A stretch of DNA of 64,000 nt from Candidatus Shapirobacteria bacterium (GCA_016188545.1 JACPHO010000001.1:175336-239335); one strand, 5' to 3'; numbered from the stretch's first letter, positions 36,708-64,000 are shown. Notes: generated from the letters alone by a model not told the origin. Numbers and translations are program-made.

Positions 36708-37853
36708 TTAGTAACCGTAAATTAGATCAATCTTATTTTTATACAAATCCTGGAGAAATCCGAGTAGTACTGATTTATTTTTTGAATTCTGGTTGTTTAC
36801 GGTTCCAAAATAATCCCAATCGGCGCCTTTGTATTCCACTAATGTCGGACTCCCCAAAACTATTGAGAGTTTTGCCTCACCCACTTTGTAAGTTTTTATA
36901 ATGTCCAATGTCTCGTCTAATATTGTTGCCCTAGTATCTGCTGGCATCAACACCACTTTCTCCTTATCATCAGCATTGAGAGCAGAAAATGTATTAGTAC
37001 TGACAATAACTTTTTTCGGCTCCGCTAACACTATTAGTTCTTCGATCAAAAACTTGGGAAGATACTCTGCTGGACTAATTACCATTGCCCCGGTCGTTCC
37101 TACAGATGGTATCGAGGGGTAGCCTTCAATTCCGACTATATTAATTTTCCCTTTTGGAACATCAACCACATACGGAGTTAGAGTCCGATAGTCCCGATTA
37201 CTCCAGTCAACCGGATGCTCTTGGTATGACGAAGAGTTAAACAATACCCCCACATCACTTTCCGGGAATATTTTAACTATGTTCTCATGAATTACCAGAT
37301 AATATTTTGTGAAATCGGTTGGAGCAATATACTTTCTAGTCCAATTTGGCAAATTTGCTTGGGGTATAACTACCCATCCGTAAACATCATCCGATTTGAC
37401 CCCGCTTTGGTTAAGTGTCGTTAAGAAGTCCAAAATATATGTGTTGTAACCACCTTTAGCCAGATTGGTGAAAAAGCTATCATCCCAAGTCGAACTTGCT
37501 TCAAGATATATCAATGGAATCAGTCCCTTGTCTCTAATTTCCAATATGGATTTAGACACTGTCGACGCCTGAATCATCGCTAATTCTTTGGTTGTCGGAA
37601 TGTTTACTCTGATAATGACTTTGTTCGAAATGCTGCTTCCACACATCCCCTCAAGTTCACCTAACTTCCTGACACTCTCTTTTTCCGATTCTAAGAACAA
37701 ATAATTTCTTGAAGCATCCTCTCCACACTTACCGATGCTGTCCTCTGTTGTCAGTGAAGCATAATTATTTTCCGCCTCTGTCTCGACCGATTTCCACACC
37801 AAAACCCCCATTCCTACTATAAGCACAAAAGTTAAAATCAACATTTTTTTCAT
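36708..37853 (-). CDS. Secreted hypothetical protein, last gene of the GT2 operon
   Basis: Signal peptide; 4-nt overlap with the upstream gene. Confidence 0.4.
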   Translation of the reverse strand: MKKMLILTFVLIVGMGVLVWKSVETEAENNYASLTTEDSIGKCGEDASRNYLFLESEKESVRKLGELEGMCGSSISNKVIIRVNIPTTKELAMIQASTVSKSILEIRDKGLIPLIYLEASSTWDDSFFTNLAKGGYNTYILDFLTTLNQSGVKSDDVYGWVVIPQANLPNWTRKYIAPTDFTKYYLVIHENIVKIFPESDVGVLFNSSSYQEHPVDWSNRDYRTLTPYVVDVPKGKINIVGIEGYPSIPSVGTTGAMVISPAEYLPKFLIEELIVLAEPKKVIVSTNTFSALNADDKEKVVLMPADTRATILDETLDIIKTYKVGEAKLSIVLGSPTLVEYKGADWDYFGTVNNQNSKNKSVLLGFLQDLYKNKIDLIYGY

Positions 37854-39145: not shown

Positions 39146-39747
39146 ATGACTTCCTCAACACTTTCATAAACAGCCGTAATCACCATGCCTTTTCCAGCTG
39201 ATTTTTTCAGAGACTCAACTATAAAGACTTTGGTTTTAACATCAGGTGTTTGCATAGTATATGGAGCATCTTCCACCATTTTTTGTCTAACTCTAAAGGA
39301 GTACAAATACCCCTTATCAGTTTCGATAGAAAACCTATCTCCCTCATTCAAAGTATTTACGATACCAAATAAAGAAAAATTAGGACTGGCAAAAATCAGG
39401 GAATCTCCAAACATACCGGATTTACTCTCATCCAGTGTTATTAGATATGCCTTGGAACTGGACAGCTTCCATCGATTACCTACGCTAATAGGTTCGTCGA
39501 GATTCAAATTTATTCCCAGTTTTGGTATTCGTAGATTAGTTGGTCTGCCCAGTATTCCATAGCGATTGATCTTGGCAGTCGAGTAACCATCATTTAAATT
39601 AATCGGTGTCTCGACAGTTTGTACAGAGTCAAAGTATGGCAAATCTACAAAAAAAGCTTTTTCCAATACATTGGCATATAGAAAAAATGACAGTAGAAAA
39701 TTGAGAGTTATAAAAGACATAACAGAAATATTGGCAATGTGTTTCAT
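39142..39747 (-). CDS. Hypothetical membrane-anchored protein in the GT2 operon
   Basis: ORF; 4-nt overlaps on both sides. Confidence 0.35.
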   Translation of the reverse strand: MKHIANISVMSFITLNFLLSFFLYANVLEKAFFVDLPYFDSVQTVETPINLNDGYSTAKINRYGILGRPTNLRIPKLGINLNLDEPISVGNRWKLSSSKAYLITLDESKSGMFGDSLIFASPNFSLFGIVNTLNEGDRFSIETDKGYLYSFRVRQKMVEDAPYTMQTPDVKTKVFIVESLKKSAGKGMVITAVYESVEEVI

Positions 39748-39968
39748 ACTAGAAATTTACGGGTTATTTTTAAGCAAAAAGTTATTATTCCGGACATAAA
39801 ATTAGATAAAAAAATAGCCACCAAAAATCCAAGGAAAATGATTGTCAAAAAGTAATAGCCCTCGCTTTTTAAATTAGCGACTACATGGTTGCGGTTTATA
39901 TAAGTTAAGGACTCTGTAAATATTTGGCTTATTGCATTAATCATATTATTCAAACCAAGGGTTTCCAC
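39744..39968 (-). CDS. Small membrane protein
   Basis: Two predicted TM helices; ORF only. Confidence 0.25.
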   Translation of the reverse strand: METLGLNNMINAISQIFTESLTYINRNHVVANLKSEGYYFLTIIFLGFLVAIFLSNFMSGIITFCLKITRKFLV

Positions 39969-40995
39969 CCAAGTGCCAAATTGATATGTTTTTCACACCC
40001 AGCGACTTTATAAAGTTAATTTTTTTAGAAAGACCTTCCTCCTTCTGAGTAACATAAAATTTACCCTTGTCTTGCCATGAATATTCAAAAGATTTTTTAG
40101 ATATGCTAGCCTTTTCGTATCCGGGATATTTCATTGATTGTTCTTGAGTGTCAAGAATAATCTGGCCTTTATCGTTGAAGTGATAACCATATGCTGGAAC
40201 ACCAACGACCAACTTTTTTGGATCAACTTGGCTCATTATGTATTTAACATTTTTCTCAACCCAATCATTTGGGGCTACATACGAATTCTTTTCCCCGTCG
40301 TATTGATAGTCGTAAGCCATAACCAGTAAAAAGTTAACCGGTAGTTTGTCAAAGTCAGCGTAGTTCCAAGGATAGTTAAGTTGAGTTTCCGCTGTTATCG
40401 GTGGTCCATCCAGCATCAACAATTTCCCCTTATCCCTTACAGTTGTGCCCAAATCCGTCACAAACTTTTTATAGTTTGCATAATCCACTTTTGTCCAACT
40501 ACTAAAATCTTCAAAATCCACCTCTATCCCAGACAATCCTTGTGTTTCTATAAATTCGACCAAAGTATCGATCACCTTTTTAACCTTTTTCTCATCAGCG
40601 AAAAGTACTCTCATATCTATATGGTTAGCCGAAATAACGACGTATTGTTGTTTAGAGTACTTCTTTATTAAGTTTATGTTTTCCTTCGAATATCCATTAC
40701 ATCCATGCTCATTTTCTGTCAAAAGCGTAACTTCTCCTGTTTCATTAATATCAAAATATTCTGATTTCAACACATCGATCTCTCGTCCATCGGCAATTTC
40801 TTTCATGGCATTGCACGATGGTGAACCGGGATAAATCCAAGCTTGAATTGTTACCTCGTTTTCTTTAGCTTCGTCAACTTCGTTACCTTTATTATTTAGC
40901 GCTGAAGTATCCTCCACTTTTACCGGCACCAGAAGTTTTCCTGTTACGACCACCAACACCGCCAAAAATAGATATAGCACCCATCTTAATTTCAT
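39946..40995 (-). CDS. Secreted GH18-like (chitinase-fold) protein, first gene of the GT2 operon
   Basis: Signal peptide; LSGIEVDFEDF resembles the GH18 DGxDxDWE motif. Confidence 0.4.
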   Translation of the reverse strand: MKLRWVLYLFLAVLVVVTGKLLVPVKVEDTSALNNKGNEVDEAKENEVTIQAWIYPGSPSCNAMKEIADGREIDVLKSEYFDINETGEVTLLTENEHGCNGYSKENINLIKKYSKQQYVVISANHIDMRVLFADEKKVKKVIDTLVEFIETQGLSGIEVDFEDFSSWTKVDYANYKKFVTDLGTTVRDKGKLLMLDGPPITAETQLNYPWNYADFDKLPVNFLLVMAYDYQYDGEKNSYVAPNDWVEKNVKYIMSQVDPKKLVVGVPAYGYHFNDKGQIILDTQEQSMKYPGYEKASISKKSFEYSWQDKGKFYVTQKEEGLSKKINFIKSLGVKNISIWHLGGNPWFE

Positions 40996-50170: not shown

Positions 50171-50491
50171 CTATTGCATTTTCTCAGCGACTTTTTTGGT
50201 TACAATTTTTCGGGACACTTTCTTGGCAGTTTTTTTAGTTATTTTTTTGACACCTTCCCCACCAATCTTTTTACTAAGCTGGGATTTCATTCGGGACACT
50301 TTGTTTTTGTGAAGTATGCCTTTTTTCTGTGCCTTATCCAAAATAGATTGAGCTTCCTTCATATTCTCGGCATTGGGCTGACCTAAAAACTTTTTGACAA
50401 GTTCTTTAAACCTGTTCTTAATTATAAGGTTAGCTTTGCGATTTTTAATCGATTTTCGCAGTGATTTTTTAGATGAGGCGCTGATTGGCAT
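50171..50491 (-). CDS. rpsT: 30S ribosomal protein S20 with Lys-rich C-terminal extension
   Basis: KSLRKSIKNRKANL..KGILHKNKVSRMKSQLSKKI aligns to S20 (..KGLIHKNKAARHKANL..). Confidence 0.6.
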   Translation of the reverse strand: MPISASSKKSLRKSIKNRKANLIIKNRFKELVKKFLGQPNAENMKEAQSILDKAQKKGILHKNKVSRMKSQLSKKIGGEGVKKITKKTAKKVSRKIVTKKVAEKMQ

Positions 50492-50552
50492 GAGTAGTAT
50501 TCTAACTGATGGACATTCTAAATACAAGAATTTATCACCCGCTCATAATATA

Positions 50553-52172
50553 ATGCTTCATATGGGCTTCCACGATCAAATTAAATCACTCAGTACCAAA
50601 AAACAACACAGCATTTTATCTGCAAGCTTGGTTTTGGCCATTACTTTCGGCTTGTCTGCTGTTTTGGGGTTTTTGCGAAGCCGGTTTCTTTACGCTCAAT
50701 TTTTCAATTGTTGTGTCCTAGAGCTAGACGCATACAACGCTGCTTTTAGACTCCCAGACTTAATTTTTAAGCTTTTGGTTACTGGCGCTTTGTCAGCATC
50801 ATTTATCCCTGTTTTCAGTTCTTATCTGCATAAAGACGAAAAAAAAGCATATGAGGTAGCCTCAACTGTTATCAATTTGCTTTTAATTTTCTTTACCATT
50901 GCCTCTGTCACGGTTTTGATATTTGCTAAACCACTTTCAGGAATTATCGCCCATGGTTTTACACCTGATCAGATTGATCTAATGACCAACCTCACCCGAA
51001 TACTCTTAGTCGCTCAGATCTTCTTTCTAATCAGCAATTTCCTAACCGGAATGCTTCAAGTTCATCAAGTATTCGTCGTCCCGGCTCTTTCGCCCATCGT
51101 TTATAACATATTCATTATCCTTTCCATCTTCTTCCTGGTACCTTCCTTTGGCATATATGGAGTAGCCATCGGTTGTGTCATTGGCGCATTTTTTCATCTC
51201 TTAATTCAAATTCCCGTTGCGAGAGCTTTAAAGGTCAAGTACTCATTCACCATCCAGCCAAAATTAGCCGGTGTTGGGGAAGTGGTTAGATTGATGATCC
51301 CCCGTAGTCTGTCGCTCGGCCTGGGCGAAATTGAAAATACTGTCACCCTCTTTTTTGCTAGTTCACTAACTGCGGGCTCAATCTCTCTTTTAAACCTTGC
51401 CCTACAGTTAATGTATCTACCTAGTCGCATATTTGGTACCACTGTTGGTCAGGCCTCTCTCCCGATGTTGTCTAAGAACATTGCCAGAAATGAAATGGAT
51501 ATTTTTAGAAACACCGTCAGAAAAACAATTTCCCAGAGCTTATTCATAGCCGTACCGATCACCGTCCTTGTTCTAGTTCACCGTTTAGCTATCATTCGTA
51601 TCGCCTTTGGTGCCAAACAATTTCCTTGGGGTGCCACACTTTTGACTGCCAAAACCTTGGCTTACTTGACTCCAGCAATTGTTAGTCAGGCTGTCATCCA
51701 GATTCTGGTACGTGCTTTTTATGCCATCCATGACACTAAAACTCCTTTAAAAATTTCTTTCTTTTCACTTTTAGTCAATGTAGTTTCCAGCTTTCTATTT
51801 GTTAATTACACTGATATGGGGATTTTAGGTTTAGCAATCAGTGCTTCACTCGGAAACCTTACCCAGTGTTTTGGTCTCTTTTATTCTTTTATAAAAATAG
51901 TTGATGGAGCTGGTTGGGAAAAGACAATCATGCACTATTTTAAGATTATTGTCGCTTCAGCTGTACTTGGGTTTACTTCCTGGTCATGCATGCGCTTTTT
52001 TGATATGTTTGTCCTCGATACCTCTAGAACTTTAAACCTAATAATCCTATCTTCTATTTCTGTTGTGATCAGCTTGGTTTTTTACTATTACACAGCGAAA
52101 GTCCTTAATATCTCCGAAGTTGATGACTATCGACACTACTTTCGTAAGTCCACTGCATTTTTCAGGAAATAG
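50553..52172 (+). CDS. murJ: Lipid II flippase MurJ/MviN
   Basis: 14-TM profile; DAYNAAFRLPDLIFKLLVTGALSASFIPVFS is the MurJ signature; the ORF start at 50394 overlaps rpsT, so an internal Met is used. Confidence 0.7.
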   Translation: MLHMGFHDQIKSLSTKKQHSILSASLVLAITFGLSAVLGFLRSRFLYAQFFNCCVLELDAYNAAFRLPDLIFKLLVTGALSASFIPVFSSYLHKDEKKAYEVASTVINLLLIFFTIASVTVLIFAKPLSGIIAHGFTPDQIDLMTNLTRILLVAQIFFLISNFLTGMLQVHQVFVVPALSPIVYNIFIILSIFFLVPSFGIYGVAIGCVIGAFFHLLIQIPVARALKVKYSFTIQPKLAGVGEVVRLMIPRSLSLGLGEIENTVTLFFASSLTAGSISLLNLALQLMYLPSRIFGTTVGQASLPMLSKNIARNEMDIFRNTVRKTISQSLFIAVPITVLVLVHRLAIIRIAFGAKQFPWGATLLTAKTLAYLTPAIVSQAVIQILVRAFYAIHDTKTPLKISFFSLLVNVVSSFLFVNYTDMGILGLAISASLGNLTQCFGLFYSFIKIVDGAGWEKTIMHYFKIIVASAVLGFTSWSCMRFFDMFVLDTSRTLNLIILSSISVVISLVFYYYTAKVLNISEVDDYRHYFRKSTAFFRK

Positions 52173-52223: not shown

Positions 52224-52787
52224 ATGCCCGTCAAAAAGGATATATCCTTTTTACCAGATCAGGAGAATATAAATTCATTTTCCGCGAGGACAATACGTTG
52301 GTTAACCTCGGTTGGACGCTTCGTTATTGTCTTTACAGAATTGATCGTTATTTGCGCCTTTTTATCGCGGTTTTGGTTGGATCGGACGAACTCTGATCTT
52401 TCTGAGATAGTTCGTCAACAGAAAGCCATTCTTGACAGTACTTCTGATTTTGAGGTCGAGTATGCACAGCTTCAAAAGAAACTTGCTGTTATCAAAAAGT
52501 TTTATGCCAACCAACCTGAGTATGAATCAAAAGTCGCCACATTAGTTGAAAGCACTCCAGAAGATGTAAATTTCAACAGTTTATTAATTAATCATAGTGC
52601 TCAGAGTAATGAGGTGACTGCCTTAATTACCTTATCGGCGTACCAAGAATCTGCTATCATCAATTTCATCACCAATCTTATTGCGAATCCTAAGATCACC
52701 TCAGTAGATATCAGAACTATCGAGAAAAAACCAAACGACACTAAATATAACGTCAATTTGTCATTAGTATTTTCCAAAAAGTCATGA
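52224..52787 (+). CDS. PilN-like type IV pilus assembly protein
   Basis: Short cytoplasmic N-terminus (ISFLP ~ INLLP), single TM, coiled coil, periplasmic domain. Confidence 0.4.
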   Translation: MPVKKDISFLPDQENINSFSARTIRWLTSVGRFVIVFTELIVICAFLSRFWLDRTNSDLSEIVRQQKAILDSTSDFEVEYAQLQKKLAVIKKFYANQPEYESKVATLVESTPEDVNFNSLLINHSAQSNEVTALITLSAYQESAIINFITNLIANPKITSVDIRTIEKKPNDTKYNVNLSLVFSKKS

Positions 52788-53440
52788 GTTTGAATTTAAA
52801 CCCACAAGTCTCCCGGGTCAAGCCACTTTTTGACTACATAAAGAAACAACAAGAAAATCGTAAAATTATAAAGTCTGTGGAGATTGGTGCTACTTTTATT
52901 CTTATCACCTTTTTTCTTATGTTTGCTCTACGTCCTACAGTTATTACTATCTCTACTTTAAAAGGCGACATCGAATCAAAGAAAATTCTTAAAGAAGAAC
53001 TGCGAAACAAAATAAACAAAGTTATCATCGCTCAAGATTTGTTTTCACAGGTTCAGGAAAGATATCATGTTGTCAATTCTAGTTTGCCAGATAAACCAAA
53101 CTATTATGAATCGTCATCCATTATTCGACAGATAGGACAAAAGTATAGCATTCCTGCTGACTCAATGGCATTCAACTTAGAAGCTGGCGAGGTCAAAGAA
53201 GATCCTGGTATTCAAGCATATAATATCTCAGTTGGTGTCAATGGACCATTTACTAATGCCCTAAGCTTTGCCACTGAAATTCTCAAAAATCGCCGTACTA
53301 ATTATATTAGTGCCCTTAATTTTGTTAATTCTACTGAAACAAACAACAGCTCAGCCAGTCCTAGTGCTTCTACAAATGGGGTTAACACAAAATTTTCCAC
53401 AGTTTTTTATTATTGGCCACCTATCAATGAAAAAAAGTAA
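52784..53440 (+). CDS. PilO-like type IV pilus assembly protein
   Basis: Bitopic topology and coiled coil; 4-nt overlap with the pilN-like gene. Confidence 0.4.
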   Translation: MSLNLNPQVSRVKPLFDYIKKQQENRKIIKSVEIGATFILITFFLMFALRPTVITISTLKGDIESKKILKEELRNKINKVIIAQDLFSQVQERYHVVNSSLPDKPNYYESSSIIRQIGQKYSIPADSMAFNLEAGEVKEDPGIQAYNISVGVNGPFTNALSFATEILKNRRTNYISALNFVNSTETNNSSASPSASTNGVNTKFSTVFYYWPPINEKK

Positions 53441-53684
53441 GTTATCATCCTATTTTCTACTGTTAAGTATTTTTACTTTCGCTGCTACATTCTTTTATAT
53501 AGTCCAAAAGAGTTATGACAGTTTAATGAAACCTATTACAGAAGTTAAGCAAAGCGTTATTATAAAATCAATTGATCCAAATCTAGACATCTCAACTCTC
53601 GACGAAATCGAAAAAAGAAATGCAGTTAATTACATTATTACCGCCATCCCAACAACAGAACCTACATTTGTAGAATCACCATGA
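53427..53684 (+). CDS. Small membrane-anchored protein (possibly PilP-like)
   Basis: MKKSKLSSYFLLLSIFTFAATFFYIV; overlaps neighbours. Confidence 0.25.
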   Translation: MKKSKLSSYFLLLSIFTFAATFFYIVQKSYDSLMKPITEVKQSVIIKSIDPNLDISTLDEIEKRNAVNYIITAIPTTEPTFVESP

Positions 53685-54973
53685 AAAAAGAGCTAAGATT
53701 TCCCACCATCCTTGGACTGATACTACTCATCATTTCAATTGCAGCTGGAGTATATTTATCTGGATCAAAAGTAACTCTAGGATCAAAAGCGTCTGGAGGC
53801 TGTAGTCCCCAAAATGTTCAAGTTACTAACCTCACTCATGTTAGTGCCAATATATCTTTTGTAACCACTTCCACCTGTCAGGCAACCATTGACATCAATA
53901 ATCAAACTGTCTTTGACCTAAAACTTGAAACACTAAACAATCCAGACTTAGTGACACACGTTCACTACTTCGAAATCAAAAGACTTAAGGAAAAAACATC
54001 TTATGACTTCTCTATTATCTCCGGTGGAAACACGTTTAACGATAGTATTTATAAATTTACTACCGGCTCCCTACCATCATCGGCTACTCCGACATCTAAT
54101 TTGGCTTGGGGTAAAGTGTTTGCTCCGGACGGTAAAACCCCTGGTAATGCTATTGTCTATCTAAATATTCCCGGTGCCTACCCACTATCATCTATCGTGA
54201 CAACTAATGGCAACTGGTCGATTTCTCTAGCCAATACATTCAATGAAACCAAGAACAATTGGTTTACCCAGCCAGTTGATCCCACTAATGAAGATATTAT
54301 TGTGATCGCCGAAGATGGAGTTACGACTCAGGTCGTAAACAGCACATCAAGAAACAATCCAGTCCCAAATATTATTATTGGTACCAATTCTTTAGACGCA
54401 GCAGATCCACTTCCCACTGAAGCTCCTCAAACAGGTCAGCTCCAATCAGTCACTCCAGTAGTTAGTCAAAAGAACATCGACATTACCAATCCGAAAGACG
54501 GTGATATGATCAATATTAGCCGCCCTGATTTTTTTGGTAGTGCCCCTATAAATACCCGGGTGGTTATTGAAGTTCATTCTACCCAAGCCATTAATGGTGA
54601 AACCATCACCGATTCTACGGGAGCTTGGCACTGGTCACCACCTCAAAATCTAACTCCAGGAGAACACACTATAACTGTAAAATCACAAAACGGTACGACT
54701 GGTATTTGGGAAATGGTTACCAGAAAATTCACAGTTCTAGCAGCAGACAGTGGTGGTCCCGCTTTCGAAGCTTCAGGATCAGCTATCACCCCAACCCTAG
54801 TACCAACTACCATTCCCACCATTGCTCCCACAGAGACACCAGTCCCAACTGAGCGTGTTGCAAAACCAAGTACTACAGTCAAGCCACCAGTGACTGGAAA
54901 CTATATTCCAACCGTTGCAATCATTTTCTTCTCTAGCATTTTTATATTAATATCGTATAAACTACTTTTGTGA
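53681..54973 (+). CDS. Secreted surface protein with a PT-rich stalk and C-terminal hydrophobic anchor
   Basis: Signal/TM; Ig/FN3-like beta-rich body; C-terminal ..KPPVTGN-[19 hydrophobic]-KLLL. Confidence 0.5.
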
Positions 54974-56193
54974 AACAATCATTGTTTTATTATTGGCGAT
55001 ACCAAATTTTAACAGTGTTGTTTTTGTTGCTCTCTCTCGGAGGAACAATGTATCTAGTGAAACTCAACCAAGACAACCGCAACCGAGCTGCTGGTACCTG
55101 TTGGGCTAAGTGTACTTGTAGTTGCGGTAAATCTTTTTGTGCTGATCCAAAAGGTGGTGGTTGTGCCGCGGAATGTAAAGATGCTTGTCCCGTTAAACCT
55201 CTACCAACCAAACCCTCAGATGACGAAAAACTTCCAGCTAATACCAAGGATGCCTGTACTGCCAGTGGAGGTTTTTGGTGTGGTAAGTACGCTTCAGGTT
55301 GTGGCGGTTTTTGTACCAGCGGTAAAACCAAAACCTGCAACCAACTTCTTCAGGAAGCCTGTCCCAAAGATACTGTTGTTTTAGGAACTGTTAAATGTGT
55401 TCAAAATACTTCAGGTGCCTGGGTAGCCGACCCTGCCATGAACTATAATCCAAATACCACTGGTCCAAACGCTATCGGTGTTGTTAATGGTAAAAGTGTC
55501 CTTCAGCAAGTTAACGAGCAATGTGCCGCCCAAATGAAAAACGGTGGTTTTGCCACTGGTACCCAAGCTTATTTGTGTAAAATTGGAGTCAAGGGTTATA
55601 CTGGAGGCGCTTGTACAGCCAATAATGGAGTTTCTTTTACCGGAAAACTAGGATGTTTTTGTGGTATAGTTCAGGTTGACACCCCTACCGGTCACACCAG
55701 TTATTCCAGCAATTGTAGTTGCGTCAAGCCGACTACTCCAAAAGCTACCACAGTCCCCACCAAAAAGCCCACCCCCACCCCAACTAAAAAATCGACTCTA
55801 ACCCCTACCAAGACACCAACTCCCACTCGGACTCCAACTCCCACTCGGACTCCAACTCCCACTCGGACACCAACTCCCACTCGGACTCCAACTCCCACTC
55901 GGACTCCCACTCCCACCATTACTCCAACAGGTACCCAATCCCCCACAATGACGCCATCCCCAACAAATATCCCAACCGAAACACCAACTTCAACCATGAC
56001 TCCAACTGGTACTCAAGTCCCAACAAATTCCCCAACTGACACTCCAGCACCCACCAACACTCCTGTATATATTGCCGAAGGTCCATCTCCCACCAGAATT
56101 GTTTTACCAAACTCTGGTTTCGAGTTCCCAATTCAGGTATTAACAGTTGTTGGAATAATTACTACATTACTTGGCTTCTTTATTTTGCTCTAA
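54970..56193 (+). CDS. Cys-rich secreted protein with (TPTPTR)n stalk and LPNSG-hydrophobic C-terminus
   Basis: ~28 Cys in the N-terminal 250 aa; tandem TPTPTR repeats; C-terminal [30 protein letters not shown]. Confidence 0.5.
55812..55910 (+). repeat. Tandem repeat: 18-bp unit ACTCCAACTCCCACTCGG x5 plus partial copies
   Basis: Read directly; encodes the (TPTPTR)5 linker. Confidence 0.9.
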
Positions 56194-56196
56194 TAA

Positions 56197-57120
56197 ATGA
56201 CAACCAGGTTTCCAGTAATATCCGCAATCGAAGCACTTCGTCCAGCTCAATGGATAAAAAACCTCAGCGTTTTTGCTGCCGTTATTTTAAACGGCCAGTT
56301 ATTCAACCCTATTAGTATCATCCCTTCAATTCTCGCTTTTTTTTCCTACTCCGCTCTTTCATCATCTTCTTACTTAGTTAATGATATTTTAGATGCCCCT
56401 AAAGATAGACAACACCCATATAAAAAACACCGACCAATTGCTAGAGGTGATGTCCCAATTCCATTAGCTGTTTTCATGGCATTTTTTCTATTATTTGTCG
56501 GACTAGGTATCTCAATGATAATCAGTCCAGGATTCTTTCTAGTAGCTTTAGTTTTTATTATTCTTCAATACTCCTATTCATTTTTCTTCAAGAAAAAAGC
56601 CGTCGTCGACATTGCTGGAATTTCATTATTTTTTATTATCCGAGCCTATGCTGGAGAAATTGCTTCGGGATATCATTTACCTATATGGATCATGCTGACA
56701 GTAATTTTCCTTTCATTGTTTATTGCTAGTGGAAAACGACGTAGTGAATTAGTTAATACTGGTGTTAAAACCAGATCTTCCTTAGGTGGATATGGTCGAA
56801 CGTTATTAAATTTCTATACTACTATGTTTGCTGTTTGCACTTTAATAGCTTATTCCATGTTTGCCTTTTTCGAAGACAAAATTCAGTTTCAAGGAATCAT
56901 CCATAAGTTTTTATTACAAAATTTTCCAGTAGCTCTGGATAGAAAATGGTATATGCTATCCATAGCTCCAGTTATTTACGGTATTATGCGCTATGGACAA
57001 ATAATTTTTGAAATGCAAGAAGGTGAACGTCCTGAAAGAGTTATTGCCACCGACATCCCCTTACTGTTTTCTGTAGTATCATGGGGACTTATGATAGTCA
57101 CCATTATCTATGTCCTTTAG
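56197..57120 (+). CDS. UbiA-family decaprenyl-phosphate phosphoribosyltransferase (DPPR synthase, Rv3806c-like)
   Basis: NDILDAPKDRQHPYKKHRPIARGDV closely parallels the Rv3806c-type NDxxDxxxDRxHPxKxxRPIAxG motif; 8-9 TM helices. Confidence 0.65.
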   Translation: MTTRFPVISAIEALRPAQWIKNLSVFAAVILNGQLFNPISIIPSILAFFSYSALSSSSYLVNDILDAPKDRQHPYKKHRPIARGDVPIPLAVFMAFFLLFVGLGISMIISPGFFLVALVFIILQYSYSFFFKKKAVVDIAGISLFFIIRAYAGEIASGYHLPIWIMLTVIFLSLFIASGKRRSELVNTGVKTRSSLGGYGRTLLNFYTTMFAVCTLIAYSMFAFFEDKIQFQGIIHKFLLQNFPVALDRKWYMLSIAPVIYGIMRYGQIIFEMQEGERPERVIATDIPLLFSVVSWGLMIVTIIYVL

Positions 57121-58699
57121 TTCAGTAGTTCTTATCTTACTAACACTGTTTACCCGTTTTTTTGGACTTAATTGGGGAGGTGGTTTTTTTTTCAATCCTG
57201 ACGAAAACAATATGGTTCAGGCTATCATGAGAATGTCCCCGGGAAATTTAAATCCGCATTTTTTTGCTTATGGTCAATTCCCACTATATTTATCTTATTT
57301 CACTCGAAATTTGCTGGGTTTTGATCATAGTTATGAGGCAACAACTTATGTACTACGTTTTTGGTCAGCTATGTTTTCTTCAATTTCAGTTCTCTTTTTT
57401 TACATAATTGTCAAGAAAATATTCAACTCAAAGGTTGCTCTGTACGCCACGTTGCTCTATATTTTTACTCCTGGACTAATTCAACTTTCACATTTTGGTA
57501 CCACCGAAAGTTTATTGATTTTAGTTTTTTTAGCCAATATTTACCTCAGCTTACATCTAGTTGAAAGACCGCTGGATTTCAAAACATATTTGCTTTCATC
57601 AGTCACAATTGGTATTGGAATGGCCAGCAAACTAAGTTCTCTTATTTTTACTTTCCCTGTACTACTTGTCTCGTTGTTTAATTTATTAAAACAACCTCAA
57701 AAGCTTCGTATTTTATTTTTAGTTTTTTACTTTTTACTTTTTACTTTAATATTTTTTATCATCTTTTCTCCATATAACCTGGTCGAAAACAAAGATTTTC
57801 TCTCTGCCCTTCGTTATGAAACTGAAGTTGCCACCGGAAAAATGCATGTTTTTTATACCAATCAATTTACAAACACTCTTCCCTACATCTTTCAGTTAAC
57901 CCATATTTTCCCCCACGTTTTAGGTTTGCCAATCTTCATATTTTCAGTTATCGGGATGTTAAACATTATTCATAAACCTGCCTGCCGGCAGGCAGGTCAT
58001 AATTTCATAAATCATAAATCAAAAGTATTTTTTATTATCGTTCTCTCTTCTTGTCTAATTTATTTTCTCTACTTTGGACAATTGTATGTCAAGTGGACCA
58101 GGTTTATGTCACCAATATTCTTTATATTTCCCTTCCTTGCTTCAATCTGTATTGCCAAAATTGACTCTAAACTTATCAGGACACTTATAATTTTTGCCTC
58201 TATCGTACCCGCACTTTATTTCTTAAGACTCTATACCAACCCAGATATCAGAGTAACAGCATCTGAATGGATGAATGCAAACATTCCCATCAATAGTAAG
58301 GTATTTTCTGAAGGTGGAAATGTAATAGATATACCACTGGATGGCGGAAAACTTGATATCACCAATTTCGACTTTTACTCACTTGAAAACAACCCCCAAT
58401 CTAAAAAGGAACTTATTAACAAAATTTCTGAAGCTGAGTATATTCTCATACCGAGTCGAAGGGTATTTATGAATCAAGTCGGACCATCTTTCTCATCCTC
58501 GCATTCTTATTACCAAGCGCTTTTCAACGGTTCGCTCGGATTTGAACAGCTTCAATCTTTTCAGCTAAAAACAGACTTATTTCTTAACCAAGAAATGGCC
58601 GAAGAGACCTGGACTGTGTTTGACCGTCCCACTATCAGAGTTTATAAAAAGGTTAATAATTTATCATTAGAAGATTATGAAAAATTACTTAACCACTAA
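57110..58699 (+). CDS. GT-C family glycosyltransferase (paralog 1) carrying an in-frame 21-nt palindrome insertion
   Basis: N-terminal loop FFNPDENN (DE motif), many TM helices, C-terminal soluble domain; paralogous to 58677-60371. Confidence 0.6.
   Translation: MSFSSVVLILLTLFTRFFGLNWGGGFFFNPDENNMVQAIMRMSPGNLNPHFFAYGQFPLYLSYFTRNLLGFDHSYEATTYVLRFWSAMFSSISVLFFYIIVKKIFNSKVALYATLLYIFTPGLIQLSHFGTTESLLILVFLANIYLSLHLVERPLDFKTYLLSSVTIGIGMASKLSSLIFTFPVLLVSLFNLLKQPQKLRILFLVFYFLLFTLIFFIIFSPYNLVENKDFLSALRYETEVATGKMHVFYTNQFTNTLPYIFQLTHIFPHVLGLPIFIFSVIGMLNIIHKPACRQAGHNFINHKSKVFFIIVLSSCLIYFLYFGQLYVKWTRFMSPIFFIFPFLASICIAKIDSKLIRTLIIFASIVPALYFLRLYTNPDIRVTASEWMNANIPINSKVFSEGGNVIDIPLDGGKLDITNFDFYSLENNPQSKKELINKISEAEYILIPSRRVFMNQVGPSFSSSHSYYQALFNGSLGFEQLQSFQLKTDLFLNQEMAEETWTVFDRPTIRVYKKVNNLSLEDYEKLLNH
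57976..57997. repeat. Second copy of the palindrome ACCTGCCTGCCGGCAGGCAGGT, encoding PACRQAG in frame
   Basis: Read directly; the paralog lacks these 7 residues. Confidence 0.9.
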
Positions 58700-60371
58700 G
58701 ATACTTTTGGTACTTTTATTTTTATTCGCCCTAAGTCTTAGACTGTATGGCTTAAATTGGGATCAAGGAACTCATCTCCACCCTGATGAAAGGTTCTTGA
58801 CAATGGTTACCAATGACATACGTCTCCCAACGTCGCTACCTCAATACTTTGACAATTCCCAATCACCCCTAAATCCCTATAACTATCCTCAATATCAATT
58901 TTTTGTCTATGGCACCCTTCCTGTATTTTTAACTAAAGCAATTACAGTTTTAATTGGTTTTGACAACTACGACAAGGTCCACTTGGTAGGAAGGTCACTA
59001 TCTGCGTTTTTTGATTCATCAAATATATTTTTGTTATATCTAATTTCGCTTAAGATATTCAAGCAAAAGTCCAAACTGATTTTATTACCAAGCCTACTTT
59101 ATGCTTTTTGTATCCTACCAATCCAACTATCACATTTTTATGCTGTCGACACCTTTTTAACTACGTTTTTACTATCCACTTTTACATTTATCACCTACTC
59201 TAGGTTTCGGTTGGCAGGGGTGGCTTTTGGACTTGCCCTCGCCTGTAAAATTTCCGCAATATATTTTTCCCCAATTATTGGACTATTCTTTATAATCTTT
59301 TTAATAAAATCAAAAAATATTTTTAGGTTTTTACTTTGTACTTTTTACTTTGTACTTTTTACTTTTATATTTTTTAGGATCTTCCAACCATACATTTTCG
59401 ATGGAATTTTCAAAATCAACCTCCATTTTATCGACAATATAAAGCAACTTCAGTCAATGACTCGGCCAGATGGAAATTTCCCCCCGTCTATTCAGTGGTT
59501 TAGCAAAATACCTCTCCTGTTTTCTCTACAAAACATTATCCTCTGGGGTGTGGGAATTCCCCTAACCCTGATCACTATTCTTGGTATTTTTAAATTGAAC
59601 CTAAAAAAAACTAATTATCTAATTCTCATCTCTATTCTCTGGACTCTAATACTCTACTTCTACCAAGGGTCACAGTTTGCCCACACTATGCGCTACCTGC
59701 TTATTATTTATCCCTTTGTCTGTTTGGTGGCCAGCTATCTTGGTGGTTTATTAAATTCTGTTAAGTTATTAAATTTTCTAGTTATATGTCACCTTATTTT
59801 GGGGTTTCTCTTTTTATCAATCTATACCAGGCCTCATTCCCGTGTTCAAGCCTCAGCTTGGATCTATGATCACCTCCCTCCTGGTTCCAAAATAACCAAC
59901 GAATATTGGGATGATCCATTGCCTTTGTACCTACAGGGAAATGACCCAAATATTTACAATGACACTATGTTGCCTCTCTACGATCCTGACTCACCAGAAA
60001 AGTGGGATAAACTCAATCAGGTTATCGACGCAACCGACTATATAATCATGTCCAGTAATCGGTTGTGGGGGTCAATTCCCCTTGTTCCAGACAAATTCCC
60101 CCAAACCTCCAAGTTTTACCAAGAACTTTTTTCACAAAATTTAGGTTTTACTAAACTAGTTGAAATCAATTCTTATCCGGGGGTTCGACTCCCAATTAAT
60201 AGCTGTTACTATTTTGGCCCCAGCAACTTCCCGGGTGTAAAAAATAGCTGGTTTTCCATCGACACTCAGTGTCTCTACCCAGGAATTTACATTCGTGATG
60301 ATATTGCCGAAGAAGCCTTTTCCGTCTATGACCATCCCAAAGTCCTAATCTTTTCTCGCACAGATCATTAA
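58677..60371 (+). CDS. GT-C family glycosyltransferase (paralog 2)
   Basis: HLHPDERF DE motif; same architecture as paralog 1. Confidence 0.6.
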   Translation: MKNYLTTKILLVLLFLFALSLRLYGLNWDQGTHLHPDERFLTMVTNDIRLPTSLPQYFDNSQSPLNPYNYPQYQFFVYGTLPVFLTKAITVLIGFDNYDKVHLVGRSLSAFFDSSNIFLLYLISLKIFKQKSKLILLPSLLYAFCILPIQLSHFYAVDTFLTTFLLSTFTFITYSRFRLAGVAFGLALACKISAIYFSPIIGLFFIIFLIKSKNIFRFLLCTFYFVLFTFIFFRIFQPYIFDGIFKINLHFIDNIKQLQSMTRPDGNFPPSIQWFSKIPLLFSLQNIILWGVGIPLTLITILGIFKLNLKKTNYLILISILWTLILYFYQGSQFAHTMRYLLIIYPFVCLVASYLGGLLNSVKLLNFLVICHLILGFLFLSIYTRPHSRVQASAWIYDHLPPGSKITNEYWDDPLPLYLQGNDPNIYNDTMLPLYDPDSPEKWDKLNQVIDATDYIIMSSNRLWGSIPLVPDKFPQTSKFYQELFSQNLGFTKLVEINSYPGVRLPINSCYYFGPSNFPGVKNSWFSIDTQCLYPGIYIRDDIAEEAFSVYDHPKVLIFSRTDH

Positions 60372-60900
60372 TCTGTATGCAAAGTTTCGAAGTAGAGGTA
60401 GATTCCCTAGCAAATTATTGAGCTTAATCAGATATCTATTCTCAAAACATAGTATTCCCGGAATCAGACCAAACCCAGCAATCTTGATATTTGTAAATCC
60501 AGCTGCCTTTAAGTGTTTCCTTACGTTTATCCTTGTTATTTCTCTAATGCCTTTTTCTTCATACCAATCTAATTTTAGCCATACCAAAAAATACCAAAAT
60601 ATATTCCAGCCGTTGGGTTCGGAAAAAGCTATTGGATATCTCCAGCTTCTTTAAATCAAGGTTATTGGCAAGAGTTTTTAGTTTATCCAAAGACTTTTGA
60701 CTAACATCAACGGCAGTTACTGCGAATCCACTTTTTAACAAGGGGATCGTCAACCTTCCGGTCCCCGCCCCAAAGTCTGAAACTTTCAAAATATTTTTAC
60801 CTAGCTTTTCAATGAGTGTTTCTATCTCCAGCTGAGTATATCTTGGAGGTCTGAGTATCTGGTTTTGTGAATACTGTTTATCGTCTGAGTCAAAGTACAT
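60345..60900 (-). pseudogene. Class I SAM methyltransferase split into two overlapping ORFs (frameshift near 60559-60587)
   Basis: N-terminal ORF carries motif I VSDFGAGTGRLT; the C-terminal ORF continues the MTase fold; a homopolymer run lies at the junction. Confidence 0.45.
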
Positions 60901-61558
60901 AGATTGAATTGTATCTTGTTTGCTGTTTAAACTTGTAGCCTTGATTTGTTAACAATTCTTTCACGTCTGGGTTTTCGACACAAATAACCTTTGGCTTAAA
61001 TGTCCAATTCCATCTGTTTAAAATTTTCTCATCCCAACCTTCGACATCCAACGATAACAAATCAATACTTCTGTCAATGTTTTGTTTTAGAAACAACTCG
61101 ATATCAACAATTTCAATATTTTTTGTCTCCGAATATACAAACCCATTTTTTCTATTAATTTCTGTTTGTTTTTTGGAAAATGTATTTAGAGCAGGAATGT
61201 CATACATATAATATTTTATTTGACCGTTTTTTGTTCCAACTCCAATATTCACAAACCTATCTCTCGATCGAATTTTTTCAAATAAACTTTTAATATTCGG
61301 GTTTGGCTCAACTACTATTCCTTTCCACCCTTTTTTATAAAATCGATAAGTATTGCTAATTCTCGTCGGGTGATACGCCCCGATTTCTACATAATACCCT
61401 ATCTTTTTTCCCATATTTTTTTCAATTTCCAAATCTTCATAATCCTGAGCATAAGATCCATTTATATATTCTCTGACAATTTTCCTGTGAAGCTCATTGA
61501 TTCCCGCCTTTATAAAATTAATTATTCCTACTTGTTTAATAATTGAAAACATTTTCAT
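60890..61558 (-). CDS. FkbM-family methyltransferase
   Basis: EIGAYHP..., LLSLDVEGWDEKIL (FkbM signature). Confidence 0.65.
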   Translation of the reverse strand: MKMFSIIKQVGIINFIKAGINELHRKIVREYINGSYAQDYEDLEIEKNMGKKIGYYVEIGAYHPTRISNTYRFYKKGWKGIVVEPNPNIKSLFEKIRSRDRFVNIGVGTKNGQIKYYMYDIPALNTFSKKQTEINRKNGFVYSETKNIEIVDIELFLKQNIDRSIDLLSLDVEGWDEKILNRWNWTFKPKVICVENPDVKELLTNQGYKFKQQTRYNSIYVL

Positions 61559-61559
61559 T

Positions 61560-62465
61560 TTAAATACTTTTTATTTTACTAATTAAAGAAATCGCACTTT
61601 CATCAATTTTAGAAACAGCAAACCATTTTTTACCCAAATCTTTTAAAGATGCTCCAAAGTGAAATATCTTCTGTTTATCAATTATCAAAAATCTATCATG
61701 TGACAGTTTAAACTCCTTGATTTCGATAGGTTCATATTGTAAGTTGTACTTTTGAATATCATTTGATATTTGCGAAGTAATATTATTACAATAAATCCTT
61801 GCTTTGACATTCTTACGTCTCTTAATAAACAACGTCAGAACGGTATCATCAATGTAATTATCTATTAGAATAATTTCCTTTTTTGCACTTCTGATAATAT
61901 CGGAAACAAGTATGTGGGCGTCAAACACTTGACCATCATAAAATATTTTTTGTTTTGGGATGGAATCACTTGCAGTTAGGGCGTTAAAAACTTGATCAAA
62001 TCTTTTGTCAGTTGAAATGGCAAACTGTATTTGTTCTTTTTCGACATCATTCACTTTTTGATAAAGCAAAGCGTAATTGTTTATATGTTTGCGCATGTTT
62101 ACAAACGCATTCATAATTTGAATACTCACCTTAATTGCCGTTTCACTTTTAAGAACAGCAGACAGCATTGCCACACCTTGTTCAGTAAATGCGTTGGGAA
62201 AATACCTTCGCCCACCCCTGTTTGAGGTCACAATTTGTGACCTCAAATCAAGATATTCTGATTTCGTCAATCTAAAGCAAAATTCTTTGGGAAAACGGGA
62301 CACATTTCTCTTTAATGACTGATTCAACACCTTGGTCTCAACCTTATATAGAATAGCCAAATCTTCATCTAAGATTACTTGAACATTCCTTACCGTCCAA
62401 ATTTTATCAAACAAATAAGTATTCTGATTCAGATTATTTTGCATCAAATATTTTTTCATACTCAT
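61560..62465 (-). CDS. ORF6N-domain protein with C-terminal PLD-like (HxK/R..D) domain
   Basis: N-terminal ORF6N/KilA-N-like: VQVILDEDLAILYKVETKVLNQSLKRNVSRFPKEFCFRLTKSEY..GGRRYFPNAFTEQGVAMLSAVL; C-terminal SHDRFLIIDKQ...GASLKDLG. Confidence 0.55.
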   Translation of the reverse strand: MSMKKYLMQNNLNQNTYLFDKIWTVRNVQVILDEDLAILYKVETKVLNQSLKRNVSRFPKEFCFRLTKSEYLDLRSQIVTSNRGGRRYFPNAFTEQGVAMLSAVLKSETAIKVSIQIMNAFVNMRKHINNYALLYQKVNDVEKEQIQFAISTDKRFDQVFNALTASDSIPKQKIFYDGQVFDAHILVSDIIRSAKKEIILIDNYIDDTVLTLFIKRRKNVKARIYCNNITSQISNDIQKYNLQYEPIEIKEFKLSHDRFLIIDKQKIFHFGASLKDLGKKWFAVSKIDESAISLISKIKSI

Positions 62466-63501
62466 TCACAGTTTTTTTATAATCAAATTTATCTAAATTT
62501 TTAGCAATTTTTTGATAATACTTTTTTCCATTTTTTAATACAATGTTTATTTTTTCTGCCAGGTCAACACTGTCGGCTACTTTTGCTATTTCACCCATAC
62601 CGGTCATTTTTACCGGGACTCTGACCCCCGGGAGATCGGAGGCAACCACGGGACATCCGCAACGCATTGCCTCTGCTTGAACAATCCCAAATGTCTCCAG
62701 ATTGTTGGTACTTGGCAGTACCAAACAATCAAATAATTCATAATATTTATTTAATTTATCGTGTTCAACAGGTCCTATCAATTCCACATTTGTCAACTTT
62801 TTATATGTCTCATCTCCGGCTACACTTTTATATGGCCCAACCAACATTAATTTGGCATCAATTTGTTTCATTGCCTCTGCCAAATAGTTTAGCCCCTTTT
62901 CCCAGGCTATTCTTCCTACAAACCCAACAATTTTGTTTTTACTTTTTACTTTTGAATTTTGATTTTTTATCCCATCTATCTTAATCGGTGGCAATATAAA
63001 AACTGTTTTTTTTAAAAAATGTTTTACAAAAATAGAAGTTTGACCATAATCCATTGTGTATGACACAACTTCGTCTGCCAATATATAAACCACCAAATGA
63101 ATCGGGTAGGTGACTAGTGAGATAAACTTATTGCTTACTGTGCCAGTAAAATTAAACTCACAATGATGTGTCACCACTATTTTTTTATTAAATAACTTTC
63201 CCCACAAGGCTAACCAAAAAGATTCCAACGAAGGTAAATGACAATTTATAATGTCATATCTTTGAACTAATTTAAAACTCTCCCAAAAATATAAAGGCAT
63301 AATATAACCTTTACCAAAACAGAACCCATCGACGCCGAAGATGTTTATCTTATTCCAAATCCGATTTTTTCCACTGCATATAACCCCTACTTCATAATTT
63401 CTTTTTACAAGTTCTTCCGATAGAATTACAGCATATTGGGTGACTCCCGAGATATTAGGCAAATAGTAAGTTAATCCCAAAAGTATTTTTTTATTAGCCA
63501 T
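62434..63501 (-). CDS. GT4 (GT1-like) family glycosyltransferase
   Basis: C-terminal PSTNNLETFGIVQAEAMRCGCPVVAS (E-x7-E region); start taken at the internal Met MANKKILLG. Confidence 0.7.
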   Translation of the reverse strand: MANKKILLGLTYYLPNISGVTQYAVILSEELVKRNYEVGVICSGKNRIWNKINIFGVDGFCFGKGYIMPLYFWESFKLVQRYDIINCHLPSLESFWLALWGKLFNKKIVVTHHCEFNFTGTVSNKFISLVTYPIHLVVYILADEVVSYTMDYGQTSIFVKHFLKKTVFILPPIKIDGIKNQNSKVKSKNKIVGFVGRIAWEKGLNYLAEAMKQIDAKLMLVGPYKSVAGDETYKKLTNVELIGPVEHDKLNKYYELFDCLVLPSTNNLETFGIVQAEAMRCGCPVVASDLPGVRVPVKMTGMGEIAKVADSVDLAEKINIVLKNGKKYYQKIAKNLDKFDYKKTVNEYEKIFDAK

Positions 63502-63514
63502 AACTGACTTTATC

Positions 63515-64000
63515 ATGAATCTTAAAAAGCTTCTTTTTTGGCAACCAAGGTTCGACCTGTTGCGTTTTTTGAACCGTAGCCAAATTGGCAAAATTTTCAT
63601 CGTAATTTTTAACTACGCAATATGGTTTTTTCTCTTTTTTGTTTCATACCTATTAATAAAAAGTGATACAAATATTTTCTGGCAATTATTGATTGCCACC
63701 ATTGTTGGAGAGGTCATCGAAAAGTATGGCAAGAGTCATGCTCTTTGGCGACGTCCACTTTACCAGCGGAACGACGCAACCCCCACCGGACTAGTAGATC
63801 GTTGGTACAAGACCGGCTCATTTCCTTCTGGCCATACCATCAAGGCGATGTCTTTTTTATTGTTTTTGATTCAATATCCTGTTTTTCCAATTTCTAGTTA
63901 CTTACTTCTTGTTATTCCATTGATTTTTCTACGAGTTCTTATTGGGTTTCATTATCCTTTTGATTTATTAGGCGGTGCCTTCTTTGGTTTACTAACTTGG
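63515..64000 (+). CDS. PAP2-family phosphatase (partial, runs off the window)
   Basis: KTGSFPSGHT and HYPFD (PAP2 motifs 2/3) and TM helices; ATG at 63515. Confidence 0.55.
   Translation, partial: MNLKKLLFWQPRFDLLRFLNRSQIGKIFIVIFNYAIWFFLFFVSYLLIKSDTNIFWQLLIATIVGEVIEKYGKSHALWRRPLYQRNDATPTGLVDRWYKTGSFPSGHTIKAMSFLLFLIQYPVFPISSYLLLVIPLIFLRVLIGFHYPFDLLGGAFFGLLTW

Follow-up and report, generated by a model that had tools for sequence, protein, structure and literature searches.

Polyprenyl-phosphate-linked pentofuranoses serve as donors for extracytoplasmic glycosyltransferases of the GT-C fold in mycobacteria, Pseudomonas, and enterobacteria, so that this type of pathway is already established. 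The mycobacterial decaprenyl-phospho-arabinose route runs through a UbiA-type decaprenyl-phosphate phosphoribosyltransferase (DPPRS; Rv3806c), the PAP2 protein Rv3807c, DprE1/DprE2, and the Aft/Emb transferases. Citrobacter youngae O1/O2 instead carries three-component systems made up of ORF15 (PPPRS-PRP, where PPPRS stands for polyprenyl-phosphate phosphoribosyltransferase), the MATE flippase ORF14, and the GT136 GT-C enzyme ORF12, with ORF13 as an epimerase of the short-chain dehydrogenase/reductase (SDR) type; candidates, some of them encoding several GT-Cs, were reported from Gram-positive as well as Gram-negative bacteria and from a phage, and a wide distribution was noted (Kelly et al. 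PNAS 2024, PMC11127046). In Pseudomonas aeruginosa, the GT-C protein TfpW and PsPA7_6246-6249 add D-arabinofuranose (D-Araf) to Ser/Thr of the group IV pilin (bioRxiv 10.1101/2020.04.19.049825). Here, we analyzed a 64-kb stretch of DNA (the window) from a metagenome-assembled genome of Candidatus Shapirobacteria (Microgenomates, candidate phyla radiation (CPR)/Patescibacteria; NCBI proteins MBI24647xx, locus tags HYV64_, on a 563,806-bp contig), the end of which encodes a UbiA-family protein, two GT-C proteins (GT-C1 and GT-C2), and a PAP2 protein, followed just beyond the window by a DUF2298 protein (Table 1). On balance, we favor the view that these genes are the core of a polyprenyl-phosphate-pentofuranose glycosylation system, with the whole pathway as set out below.

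The UbiA protein is, judged by its sequence, very probably a phosphoribosyltransferase using phosphoribosyl pyrophosphate (PRPP) and polyprenyl phosphate. It passes the NCBIfam equivalog NF008978 (decaprenyl-phosphate phosphoribosyltransferase) with 221.9 bits (cutoff 207), its closest PDB relative is Rv3806c from M. tuberculosis (8j8j, E=1e-39), and NCBI names it decaprenyl-phosphate phosphoribosyltransferase as well (MBI2464785.1). The signature NDxxDxxxDRxHPxKxxRPIAxG, from which a first-pass annotation of the window had derived its Rv3806c-like assignment, is matched exactly (YLVNDILDAPKDRQHPYKKHRPIARG). In Rv3806c, 13 positions binding Mg-PRPP and decaprenyl phosphate have been defined, and the phosphoribose-binding residues among them (Y70, Q135, Y138, K87, R90, K143) are not conserved in UbiA prenyltransferases (PMC10994848). 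When aligned to 8j8j, 11 of these 13 residues are identical in the window protein, with R15, K21, Y59, N62, D66, K76, R79, Q124, Y127, K132, and K180 corresponding to R22, K28, Y70, N73, D77, K87, R90, Q135, Y138, K143, and K191 of Rv3806c. The two differing sites are F146 in place of Y157, where Phe also occurs in some mycobacteria (PMC10994848), and S194 in place of K208, which lies beside the invariant R193. All these binding positions are invariant across six Shapirobacteria orthologs, and overall identity to the actinobacterial enzymes is only ~35%.

Membership in the UbiA superfamily and weak matches to prenyltransferase models would also be expected if the protein prenylated aromatic compounds or heme (MenA, UbiA, CtaB-like) or were a lipid synthase of the archaeal type, in which case no pentose pathway would exist. 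This is highly improbable: models for aromatic, heme, and archaeal-lipid prenyltransferases give at most 46 bits (cutoffs 180-350), whereas the cutoff of the DPPRS model is exceeded, and all of the residues specific for PRPP (Y70, Q135, Y138, K87, R90, K143) are kept. Because of these model scores and the conservation of binding residues, we regard the MenA/UbiA/heme-O alternative as effectively refuted, and the proposed placement in the Rv3806c clade stands. The family as such is large, with 671 clusters (50% identity) at E<=1e-30 in an exhaustive search, and some homologs are carried on plasmids, namely in Actinomycetota, Lactococcus, Bacteroidota, cyanobacteria, alphaproteobacteria, and haloarchaea. 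One locus (L096) holds a more distant homolog (44% identity) with neither a GT-C nor a PAP2 neighbor; the 195-aa protein next to it is unrelated to PAP2.

GT-C1 and GT-C2 are paralogs (25% identity over the full length, E=3e-44) sharing an Asp-Glu motif, as previously annotated. The motif, directly after the first transmembrane segment (TM1), is invariant in both proteins: D31/E32 among 62 homologs of GT-C1, and D37/E38 among 65 homologs of GT-C2, where it forms part of an invariant P36-D37-E38-R39 motif. AlphaFold2 models built from these homologs (pLDDT 91.1 for GT-C1 and 92.1 for GT-C2; pTM 0.91) have significant structural matches to GT-C enzymes only. The nearest structural neighbor of GT-C1 is the protein O-mannosyltransferase Pmt4, and Foldseek matches of GT-C2 comprise ALG12, STT3, AglB, ArnT, and Pmt4. 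Both hallmarks of the GT-C fold, namely the multi-helix membrane domain and conserved acidic residues in the first loop after TM1, are thus found in both proteins. At the sequence level, GT-C1 exceeds the Pfam gathering thresholds of PMT_2 (52.5 bits) and PMT (40 bits), while the window copy of GT-C2 has no Pfam match and its orthologs match PMT_2. NCBI uses the name GT39; since PMT_2 also takes in ArnT-like enzymes, it does not define the donor. Searching PDB chains with both sequences returned chance matches only.

The first-pass annotation had likened these two transferases to Emb/Aft, which has to be revised. Neither a detectable sequence similarity nor a closest structural tie to the Emb, AftA, AftB, or AftD families was found, and profile comparisons of GT-C1 with the Rhodococcus AftB homolog and with a GT-C-like membrane protein adjoining a DPPRS homolog in Lactococcus revealed no similarity. 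On these models, GT-C1 and GT-C2 are GT-C transferases of the PMT/ArnT kind, outside the Emb/Aft families. Grouping of the GT-Cs with ArnT/PMT enzymes acting on other donors had been named beforehand as an outcome that would speak against a pentose pathway, and proximity to PMT, ALG12, AglB, and ArnT is indeed what we observed. However, this test was too strict, as the fold family does not predict the donor: GT136, the proven transferase of undecaprenyl-phosphate-ribofuranose, itself has ArnT as its nearest sequence relative (PMC11127046). Furthermore, GT-C1 and GT-C2 share only 11-18% sequence identity with PMT (GT39) and ArnT (GT83), from which they also differ by a distinct alpha/beta C-terminal domain of ~130-150 aa and, as predicted by gene context, in using a pentofuranose rather than mannose or 4-amino-4-deoxy-arabinose (Ara4N) as donor. 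The window encodes one more GT-C candidate, the fourth, at 14168-15400 (-); its 410-aa product matches PMT_2 (E=2e-10) and shows 32% identity over 140 aa to a GT39 protein adjoining the DPPRS homolog of Haloterrigena.

The window, annotated by an open reading frame (ORF) scan together with Pfam and NCBIfam searches, ends within the PAP2 gene, but a contig from an independent assembly (L001) is identical to the window end and shows the genes beyond it. There, the full-length PAP2 gene (L001:7638-8210, Pfam PAP2 E=2.3e-10) is followed by DUF2298 and then by UvrD. As had been noted, PAP2 is divergent and runs opposite to its GT4 neighbor, and its translation carries KSHALWRRP, SFPSGH, and LRVLIGFHYPFD, in agreement with the PAP2 motifs KxxxxxxRP, SGH, and HxxxD. 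The parallel drawn to Rv3807c holds with regard to these motifs only, as the match to the Rhodococcus Rv3807c-type protein (31% over 70 aa) is confined to them. The module extends past both boundaries given originally, downstream beyond the window end and upstream to 52224, with 52224-60371 forming a single array of overlapping or abutting ORFs on the plus strand. A scan of 50-64 kb for promoters and terminators yielded counts equal to those of shuffled controls and is uninformative on operon borders.

Conservation of this arrangement was assessed in relatives comprising five loci obtained by exact protein look-up and 80 species-representative genomes mapped by tblastn; 53 species-level loci span UbiA to DUF2298 and underlie all counts "of 53". 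The shared order is methionyl-tRNA synthetase (MetRS), S20, MurJ, PilN-like, two small membrane proteins, Big_13, an optional second surface protein, UbiA, GT-C1, GT-C2, a slot of variable content, PAP2, DUF2298, UvrD, and FemAB, and the operon is conserved across at least 80 species-level Shapirobacteria genomes. UbiA, GT-C1, and GT-C2 occur together in 51 of the 53 loci, and PAP2 lies directly upstream of DUF2298 in all 53. In relatives, too, the start of GT-C1 overlaps the stop of UbiA. Two genomes keep just UbiA, PAP2, and DUF2298. Linkage of UbiA, GT-C, and PAP2, first proposed from the window, is therefore a conserved trait of these 53 species genomes. Many of the 80 related genomes bear the record names "uncultured Gammaproteobacteria" or "Candidatus Methanoperedens", although their locus is of the Shapirobacteria type (61-89% identity); these names are probably wrong.

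In our model, the UbiA enzyme would move ribose-5-phosphate from PRPP to polyprenyl phosphate at the cytoplasmic face of the membrane, a step for which its homology and conserved residues speak strongly. PAP2, considering its conserved position and the precedent of Rv3807c, would then strip the 5-phosphate to give polyprenyl-phosphate-ribofuranose. After flipping of the lipid-linked sugar, for which the adjacent MurJ/MOP protein is the only nearby candidate, GT-C1 and GT-C2, and probably also DUF2298, would pass the pentofuranose to acceptors outside the membrane. These would most likely be the two co-operonic surface proteins with sortase signals and Thr/Pro-rich (TP-rich) linkers, amounting to protein O-pentofuranosylation, whereas the FkbM and GT4 genes in the variable slot may serve as optional decorating or priming functions.

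With respect to the sugar itself, ribofuranose is most likely, albeit provisionally, as neither an in-cluster epimerase nor a DprE1-like gene was found in the window and the ~4 kb beyond it. A DprE1-like FAD oxidase query taken from a Bacteroidota DPPRS cluster had no match in the window or in 88 related loci, and Pfam scans of the 50-64 kb region and of 40 window ORFs (150 aa or longer) lying upstream of 47 kb yielded no PF01565-type protein. The annotated absence of DprE1/E2 from the window thus extends, for the DprE1-type oxidase, to the related loci, and the suggestion of a ribose rather than arabinose donor agrees with it, for a genome lying mostly outside the sequence covered. The sole SDR in the scanned window ORFs (4309-5019) was rejected as DprE2, being generic and FabG/glucose-dehydrogenase-like, 50 kb away, and only 24% identical to a DprE2-like protein. 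In 10 of the 53 relatives, however, the slot is occupied by an NAD-dependent epimerase (e.g. L002:13900-14946), and these relatives probably make another pentofuranose. This enzyme shares 46% identity (E=1e-101) with the epimerase adjoining a DPPRS homolog on a plasmid of the archaeon Haloterrigena (L091:6685-7776), a similarity which suggests a DPPRS-associated epimerase family common to CPR bacteria and haloarchaea. It parallels ORF13 of Citrobacter O2, which converts undecaprenyl-phosphate-ribofuranose to undecaprenyl-phosphate-xylofuranose (PMC11127046).

Compared with the described systems, the locus resembles the mycobacterial pathway in its first two steps, a UbiA-type phosphoribosyltransferase and PAP2 clustered with a GT-C, and the Rhodococcus operon PAP2-DPPRS-AftB presents the same trio of families. 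It differs in that no DprE1/DprE2 was found, the GT-Cs fall outside Emb/Aft, and a galactan/mycolate context is missing. The label Mycobacterium-like is therefore apt for these two steps only, and the three-component type (Kelly et al. 2024) is the nearer model; the accompanying description of a reduced-genome, non-actinobacterial host was borne out by the CPR origin. Common to the locus, by prediction, and to the three-component type are an Rv3806c-type PPPRS making polyprenyl-phosphate-ribofuranose from PRPP, a dephosphorylation step, an extracytoplasmic GT-C, and an optional SDR/NAD-epimerase changing the pentose, which here is present in relatives but not in the window cluster. The set of PPPRS, phosphatase, and GT-C by which Kelly et al. 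recognized such systems is co-located in the related loci, with PAP2 as the putative phosphatase. In contrast to Citrobacter, the phosphatase is a separate PAP2 protein, as in mycobacteria, and not a fused HAD domain; the cluster has no MATE/GtrA flippase gene; the candidate transferases are PMT_2/GT39-like paralogs plus DUF2298; the genes make up a core operon conserved within a CPR lineage and not an O-antigen serotype add-on; and the likely acceptor is protein or wall rather than lipopolysaccharide. The TfpW system is similar in that a DPPRS homolog supplies the lipid-linked pentofuranose, a GT-C acts as transferase, and the gene of the substrate is linked to those for glycosylation, the protein acceptor here being putative. 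It differs by its DprE1/E2 and GtrA-like flippase and by D-Araf oligomers on a type IV pilin, whereas the Shapirobacteria candidates are sortase-signal proteins with TP-rich stalks.

That the co-operonic surface proteins are the acceptors is a tentative proposal, drawn by analogy. Protein O-pentofuranosylation is preferred because of their Thr/Pro-rich stalks, the proximity of GT-C1 to Pmt4, and the TfpW precedent; furthermore, the 52224-60371 array couples their genes to UbiA and the GT-Cs, and their LPxxG/PxTG signals and transmembrane (TM) segments are conserved. Two protein types occur directly upstream of UbiA in 67 inspected loci, a Cys/TP-rich LPxxG type and a Big_13 PxTG type, with TP-rich stretches in which T+P reaches 0.83 per 60 aa. 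Most of these loci share, just ahead of UbiA, a protein whose C-terminus reads GPSPTRIxLPxxG...TLLGFLILL. The Big_13 gene is present in 65 related loci, and its orthologs have a sortase-type end in which STSSG[VI]PxTG precedes a TM segment and then KK. Within the TP-rich protein of the window, an 18-bp tandem repeat (55794-55928, 5.8-7.5 copies) encodes TPTPTR units; this repeat also gives rise to an artefactual mirror ORF (55701-55997) on the other strand. Elsewhere in the window, a 518-aa protein with fn3 and sortase domains (34603-36159, +) is a candidate processing enzyme for the LPNSG/PPVTGN proteins at 53681-56193.

Several observations weigh against this model. All enzyme, glycan, and glycoprotein identities in Shapirobacteria are predictions from genes. 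Part of the synteny is plain core-genome order, as seen from the MetRS, S20, UvrD, and GatCAB flanks. Characterized PMT/ArnT-like relatives of the GT-Cs use mannose or Ara4N, and their donor is assigned here from gene context. The similarity of PAP2 is generic, with undecaprenyl-diphosphate phosphatases as its weak best NCBIfam matches, and hhalign comparison of DUF2298 with GT-C2 (6, then 52 sequences) gave E ~1e-3 and a probability of 20-23% over 234-333 columns. No MATE or small GtrA/SMR flippase gene occurs from 52224 to the end of L001. As our analysis covers 64 kb plus ~4 kb and the genome measures at least 564 kb, an epimerase, a PRPP synthetase, or another donor synthase may lie elsewhere. 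Finally, a gene stands at the position of the TP-rich protein in 25 of 45 complete loci and is missing in 20, of which 18 keep both GT-C1 and GT-C2, and across the 45 loci its presence does not correlate with GT-C1/2, GT4, or the epimerase. The TP-rich protein can thus not be the sole acceptor.

The persistence of both GT-Cs in those 18 genomes would be readily explained if the same donor fed a cell-wall or lipid-anchored polysaccharide, i.e. if several GT-Cs built up an extracellular pentofuranan, in the manner of arabinogalactan or lipoarabinomannan, on peptidoglycan or a GT4-primed glycolipid, with the surface-protein genes as passengers. We take this to be a serious alternative, if a somewhat unlikely one. 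The trio of GT-C1, GT-C2, and the putative GT-C DUF2298 recalls the multi-enzyme Aft/Emb set, MurJ and FemAB flank the cluster in all relatives, GT4 enzymes, found in 29 of 53 relatives, prime glycolipids such as phosphatidylinositol mannosides, and AftB is the operon partner of PAP2 and DPPRS in Rhodococcus. Conversely, genes for an LCP ligase, Wzx/Wzy, or an ABC exporter are missing from the cluster, GT4 is lacking in nearly half of the relatives, the GT-Cs are structurally nearest to protein- or lipid-A-modifying enzymes and not to Aft/Emb polymerases, and a tight coupling exists between the array and the genes of the surface proteins.

It is improbable that GT-C1 and GT-C2 are ordinary PMT/ArnT-type enzymes using a hexose or other donor made elsewhere (e.g. 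polyprenyl-phosphate-mannose), so that the UbiA product would be used by DUF2298 alone or by nothing here and adjacency would reflect core gene order. The Pfam PMT/PMT_2 matches and the NCBI name "GT39" would fit such a role, as would the two relatives having UbiA, PAP2, and DUF2298 with neither GT-C, and the surrounding housekeeping genes are equally syntenic. Yet the UbiA-stop/GT-C1-start overlap is conserved, the cluster has no polyprenyl-phosphate-hexose synthase (Dpm1/GtrB-type GT2), and unrelated phyla likewise combine a DPPRS homolog with several proteins of GT39 type, as seen on RefSeq plasmids of Chondrinema (Bacteroidota; with DprE1/E2-like genes) and Haloterrigena (with an epimerase).

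Table 1. Genes of the predicted pentofuranose locus and its surroundings (window coordinates unless stated otherwise)
Feature	Position	Strand	Remarks
MurJ/MOP-superfamily flippase	50394..52172	+	TIGR01695 murJ_mviN 275.6 bits (cutoff 235.55); Pfam MurJ E=1.6e-74
PilN-like small membrane protein	52224-52787	+	PilN match weak, E=6e-4; L007 ortholog match E at most 1e-5
Small membrane protein, 218 aa	52784-53440	+	heads gene array
Small membrane protein, ~85 aa	53427-53684	+	heads gene array
Ig-like (Big_13) surface protein	53681..54973	+	N-terminal anchor, PT-rich linker, C-terminal PPVTGN + TM; Pfam Big_13 E=9e-7; second candidate substrate
Cys-rich, Thr/Pro-rich surface protein	54970..56193	+	C-terminal LPNSG + hydrophobic tail; candidate substrate for O-glycosylation; 3-nt gap to UbiA
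Predicted polyprenyl-phosphate 5-phosphoribosyltransferase (PPPRS/DPPRS; UbiA superfamily, Rv3806c-like), 307 aa	56197..57120	+	Pfam UbiA E=1.9e-22
GT-C1, GT-C-fold membrane glycosyltransferase (PMT_2/GT39-like), 529 aa	57110..58699	+	start overlaps UbiA stop by 11 nt
GT-C2, GT-C1 paralog, GT-C fold, 564 aa	58677..60371	+	23-nt overlap with GT-C1
Degraded S-adenosylmethionine (SAM)-methyltransferase remnant	60345..60900	-	113-aa ORF 60559-60900 + out-of-frame 80-aa ORF 60345-60587
FkbM-family methyltransferase	60890..61558	-	variable-slot accessory; Pfam Methyltransf_21 E=1.8e-18
ORF6N anti-repressor-like protein, 301 aa	61560..62465	-	Pfam ORF6N E=3e-30; PHROG 4792 anti-repressor E=8e-24
GT4 glycosyltransferase (GT-B fold, cytoplasmic Leloir)	62434..63501	-	Pfam Glycos_transf_1 E=4.5e-30 + Glyco_transf_4
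PAP2 membrane phosphatase, full length 190 aa	63515..64000	+	cut by window end; candidate polyprenyl-phosphate-ribose-5-phosphate 5-phosphatase
DUF2298/Chlor_Arch_YYY membrane protein, 692 aa	L001:8251-10329 (= window 64128-66206, beyond end)	+	TIGR03662 472.8 bits (cutoff 300)

Upstream of the surface-protein genes, the three small membrane proteins are kept in 64 loci; in the window, their start and stop codons overlap. MurJ, a MOP-superfamily relative of MATE whose normal role is lipid II flipping, is syntenic in 63 loci and classified as lipid II flippase by equivalog; its true start is probably downstream of 50394. A profile of the DUF2298 protein had no match among PDB sequences. A DUF2298 gene on a Pseudobutyrivibrio plasmid lies in a polysaccharide locus without DPPRS, and DUF2298 is therefore not exclusive to the pathway.

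The slot between GT-C2 and PAP2 differs among the 53 loci, with GT4 in 29, FkbM in 6, the NAD-dependent epimerase in 10, and DUF362 in 5. FkbM and GT4, originally counted as members of the module, are present in the window and yet accessory. GT4, annotated correctly, keeps its orientation divergent from PAP2 where it occurs, and has generic GT4 matches only in NCBIfam and PDB; its start is placed at 63501 by NCBI, while the longest ORF (388 aa) extends to 63600. The start codons of GT4 and PAP2 face apart with 13 bp between them (63501-63515), so that their promoters would lie inside neighboring coding sequences or transcription would arise by read-through from upstream. FkbM is also found in L007 and L008. 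Of the two methyltransferases originally reported, FkbM was recovered, whereas the SAM-methyltransferase is a pseudogene-like remnant: its Methyltransf_25 match is confined to the N-terminal SAM-binding part, and it is short by ~54 residues compared with the intact 239-aa homolog, which occurs in L064 only (15865-16584). As the same split is present in the independent assembly L001, it probably reflects real gene decay. Wedged between FkbM and GT4, and overlapping the 3' end of the latter by 32 nt, is the ORF6N gene, which the first-pass annotation had omitted and which looks like a recent insertion. Because no ORF6N gene occurs in 80 related loci and its product matches a phage anti-repressor, it is probably a lineage-specific, phage-like insertion into the glycan slot, outside the glycosylation system. 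Another gene that looks like a phage-derived regulator encodes a Bro-N domain protein (2381-3019, +; phrog_15286 E=4e-69), and near the syntenic region in L002 there is a Bro-N gene as well. Furthermore, a processive GT2 with chitin-synthase-like Pfam matches is encoded near a GH18 glycoside hydrolase (37850-40995, -), and this region may represent a second, separate surface-polysaccharide system.

Shapirobacteria are a new lineage for this pathway type and do not introduce a new principle; we found no paper linking CPR or Patescibacteria to DPPRS or to this pathway. What goes beyond known systems is that PMT-like GT-Cs would act alongside DUF2298, that the cluster has no flippase gene of its own, and that the operon includes sortase-type TP-rich proteins. 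Thus, the gain consists in lineage breadth and a possible new acceptor or sugar, and the UbiA-PAP2-DUF2298 linkage would provide the DUF2298 family with its first functional context. In its most far-reaching form, our model would have Shapirobacteria, and perhaps other Microgenomates, O-glycosylating sortase-anchored, mucin-like Thr/Pro-rich proteins with ribofuranose from polyprenyl-phosphate-ribose, transferred by PMT-like GT-Cs, with DUF2298 as a new GT-C family using the same donor. This is speculative and, taken in all its parts, unlikely to hold. To our knowledge, protein O-ribofuranosylation has not been described previously; if true, a cell with few nucleotide-sugar pathways would build its glycocalyx straight from PRPP. 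CPR bacteria are tiny, mostly uncultured, and dependent on contact with other cells, and we know of almost nothing established about their surface chemistry. For these organisms, the operon points to a specific, inexpensive way of making a surface glycan from PRPP, and the adjacent TP-rich proteins are named candidate substrates.

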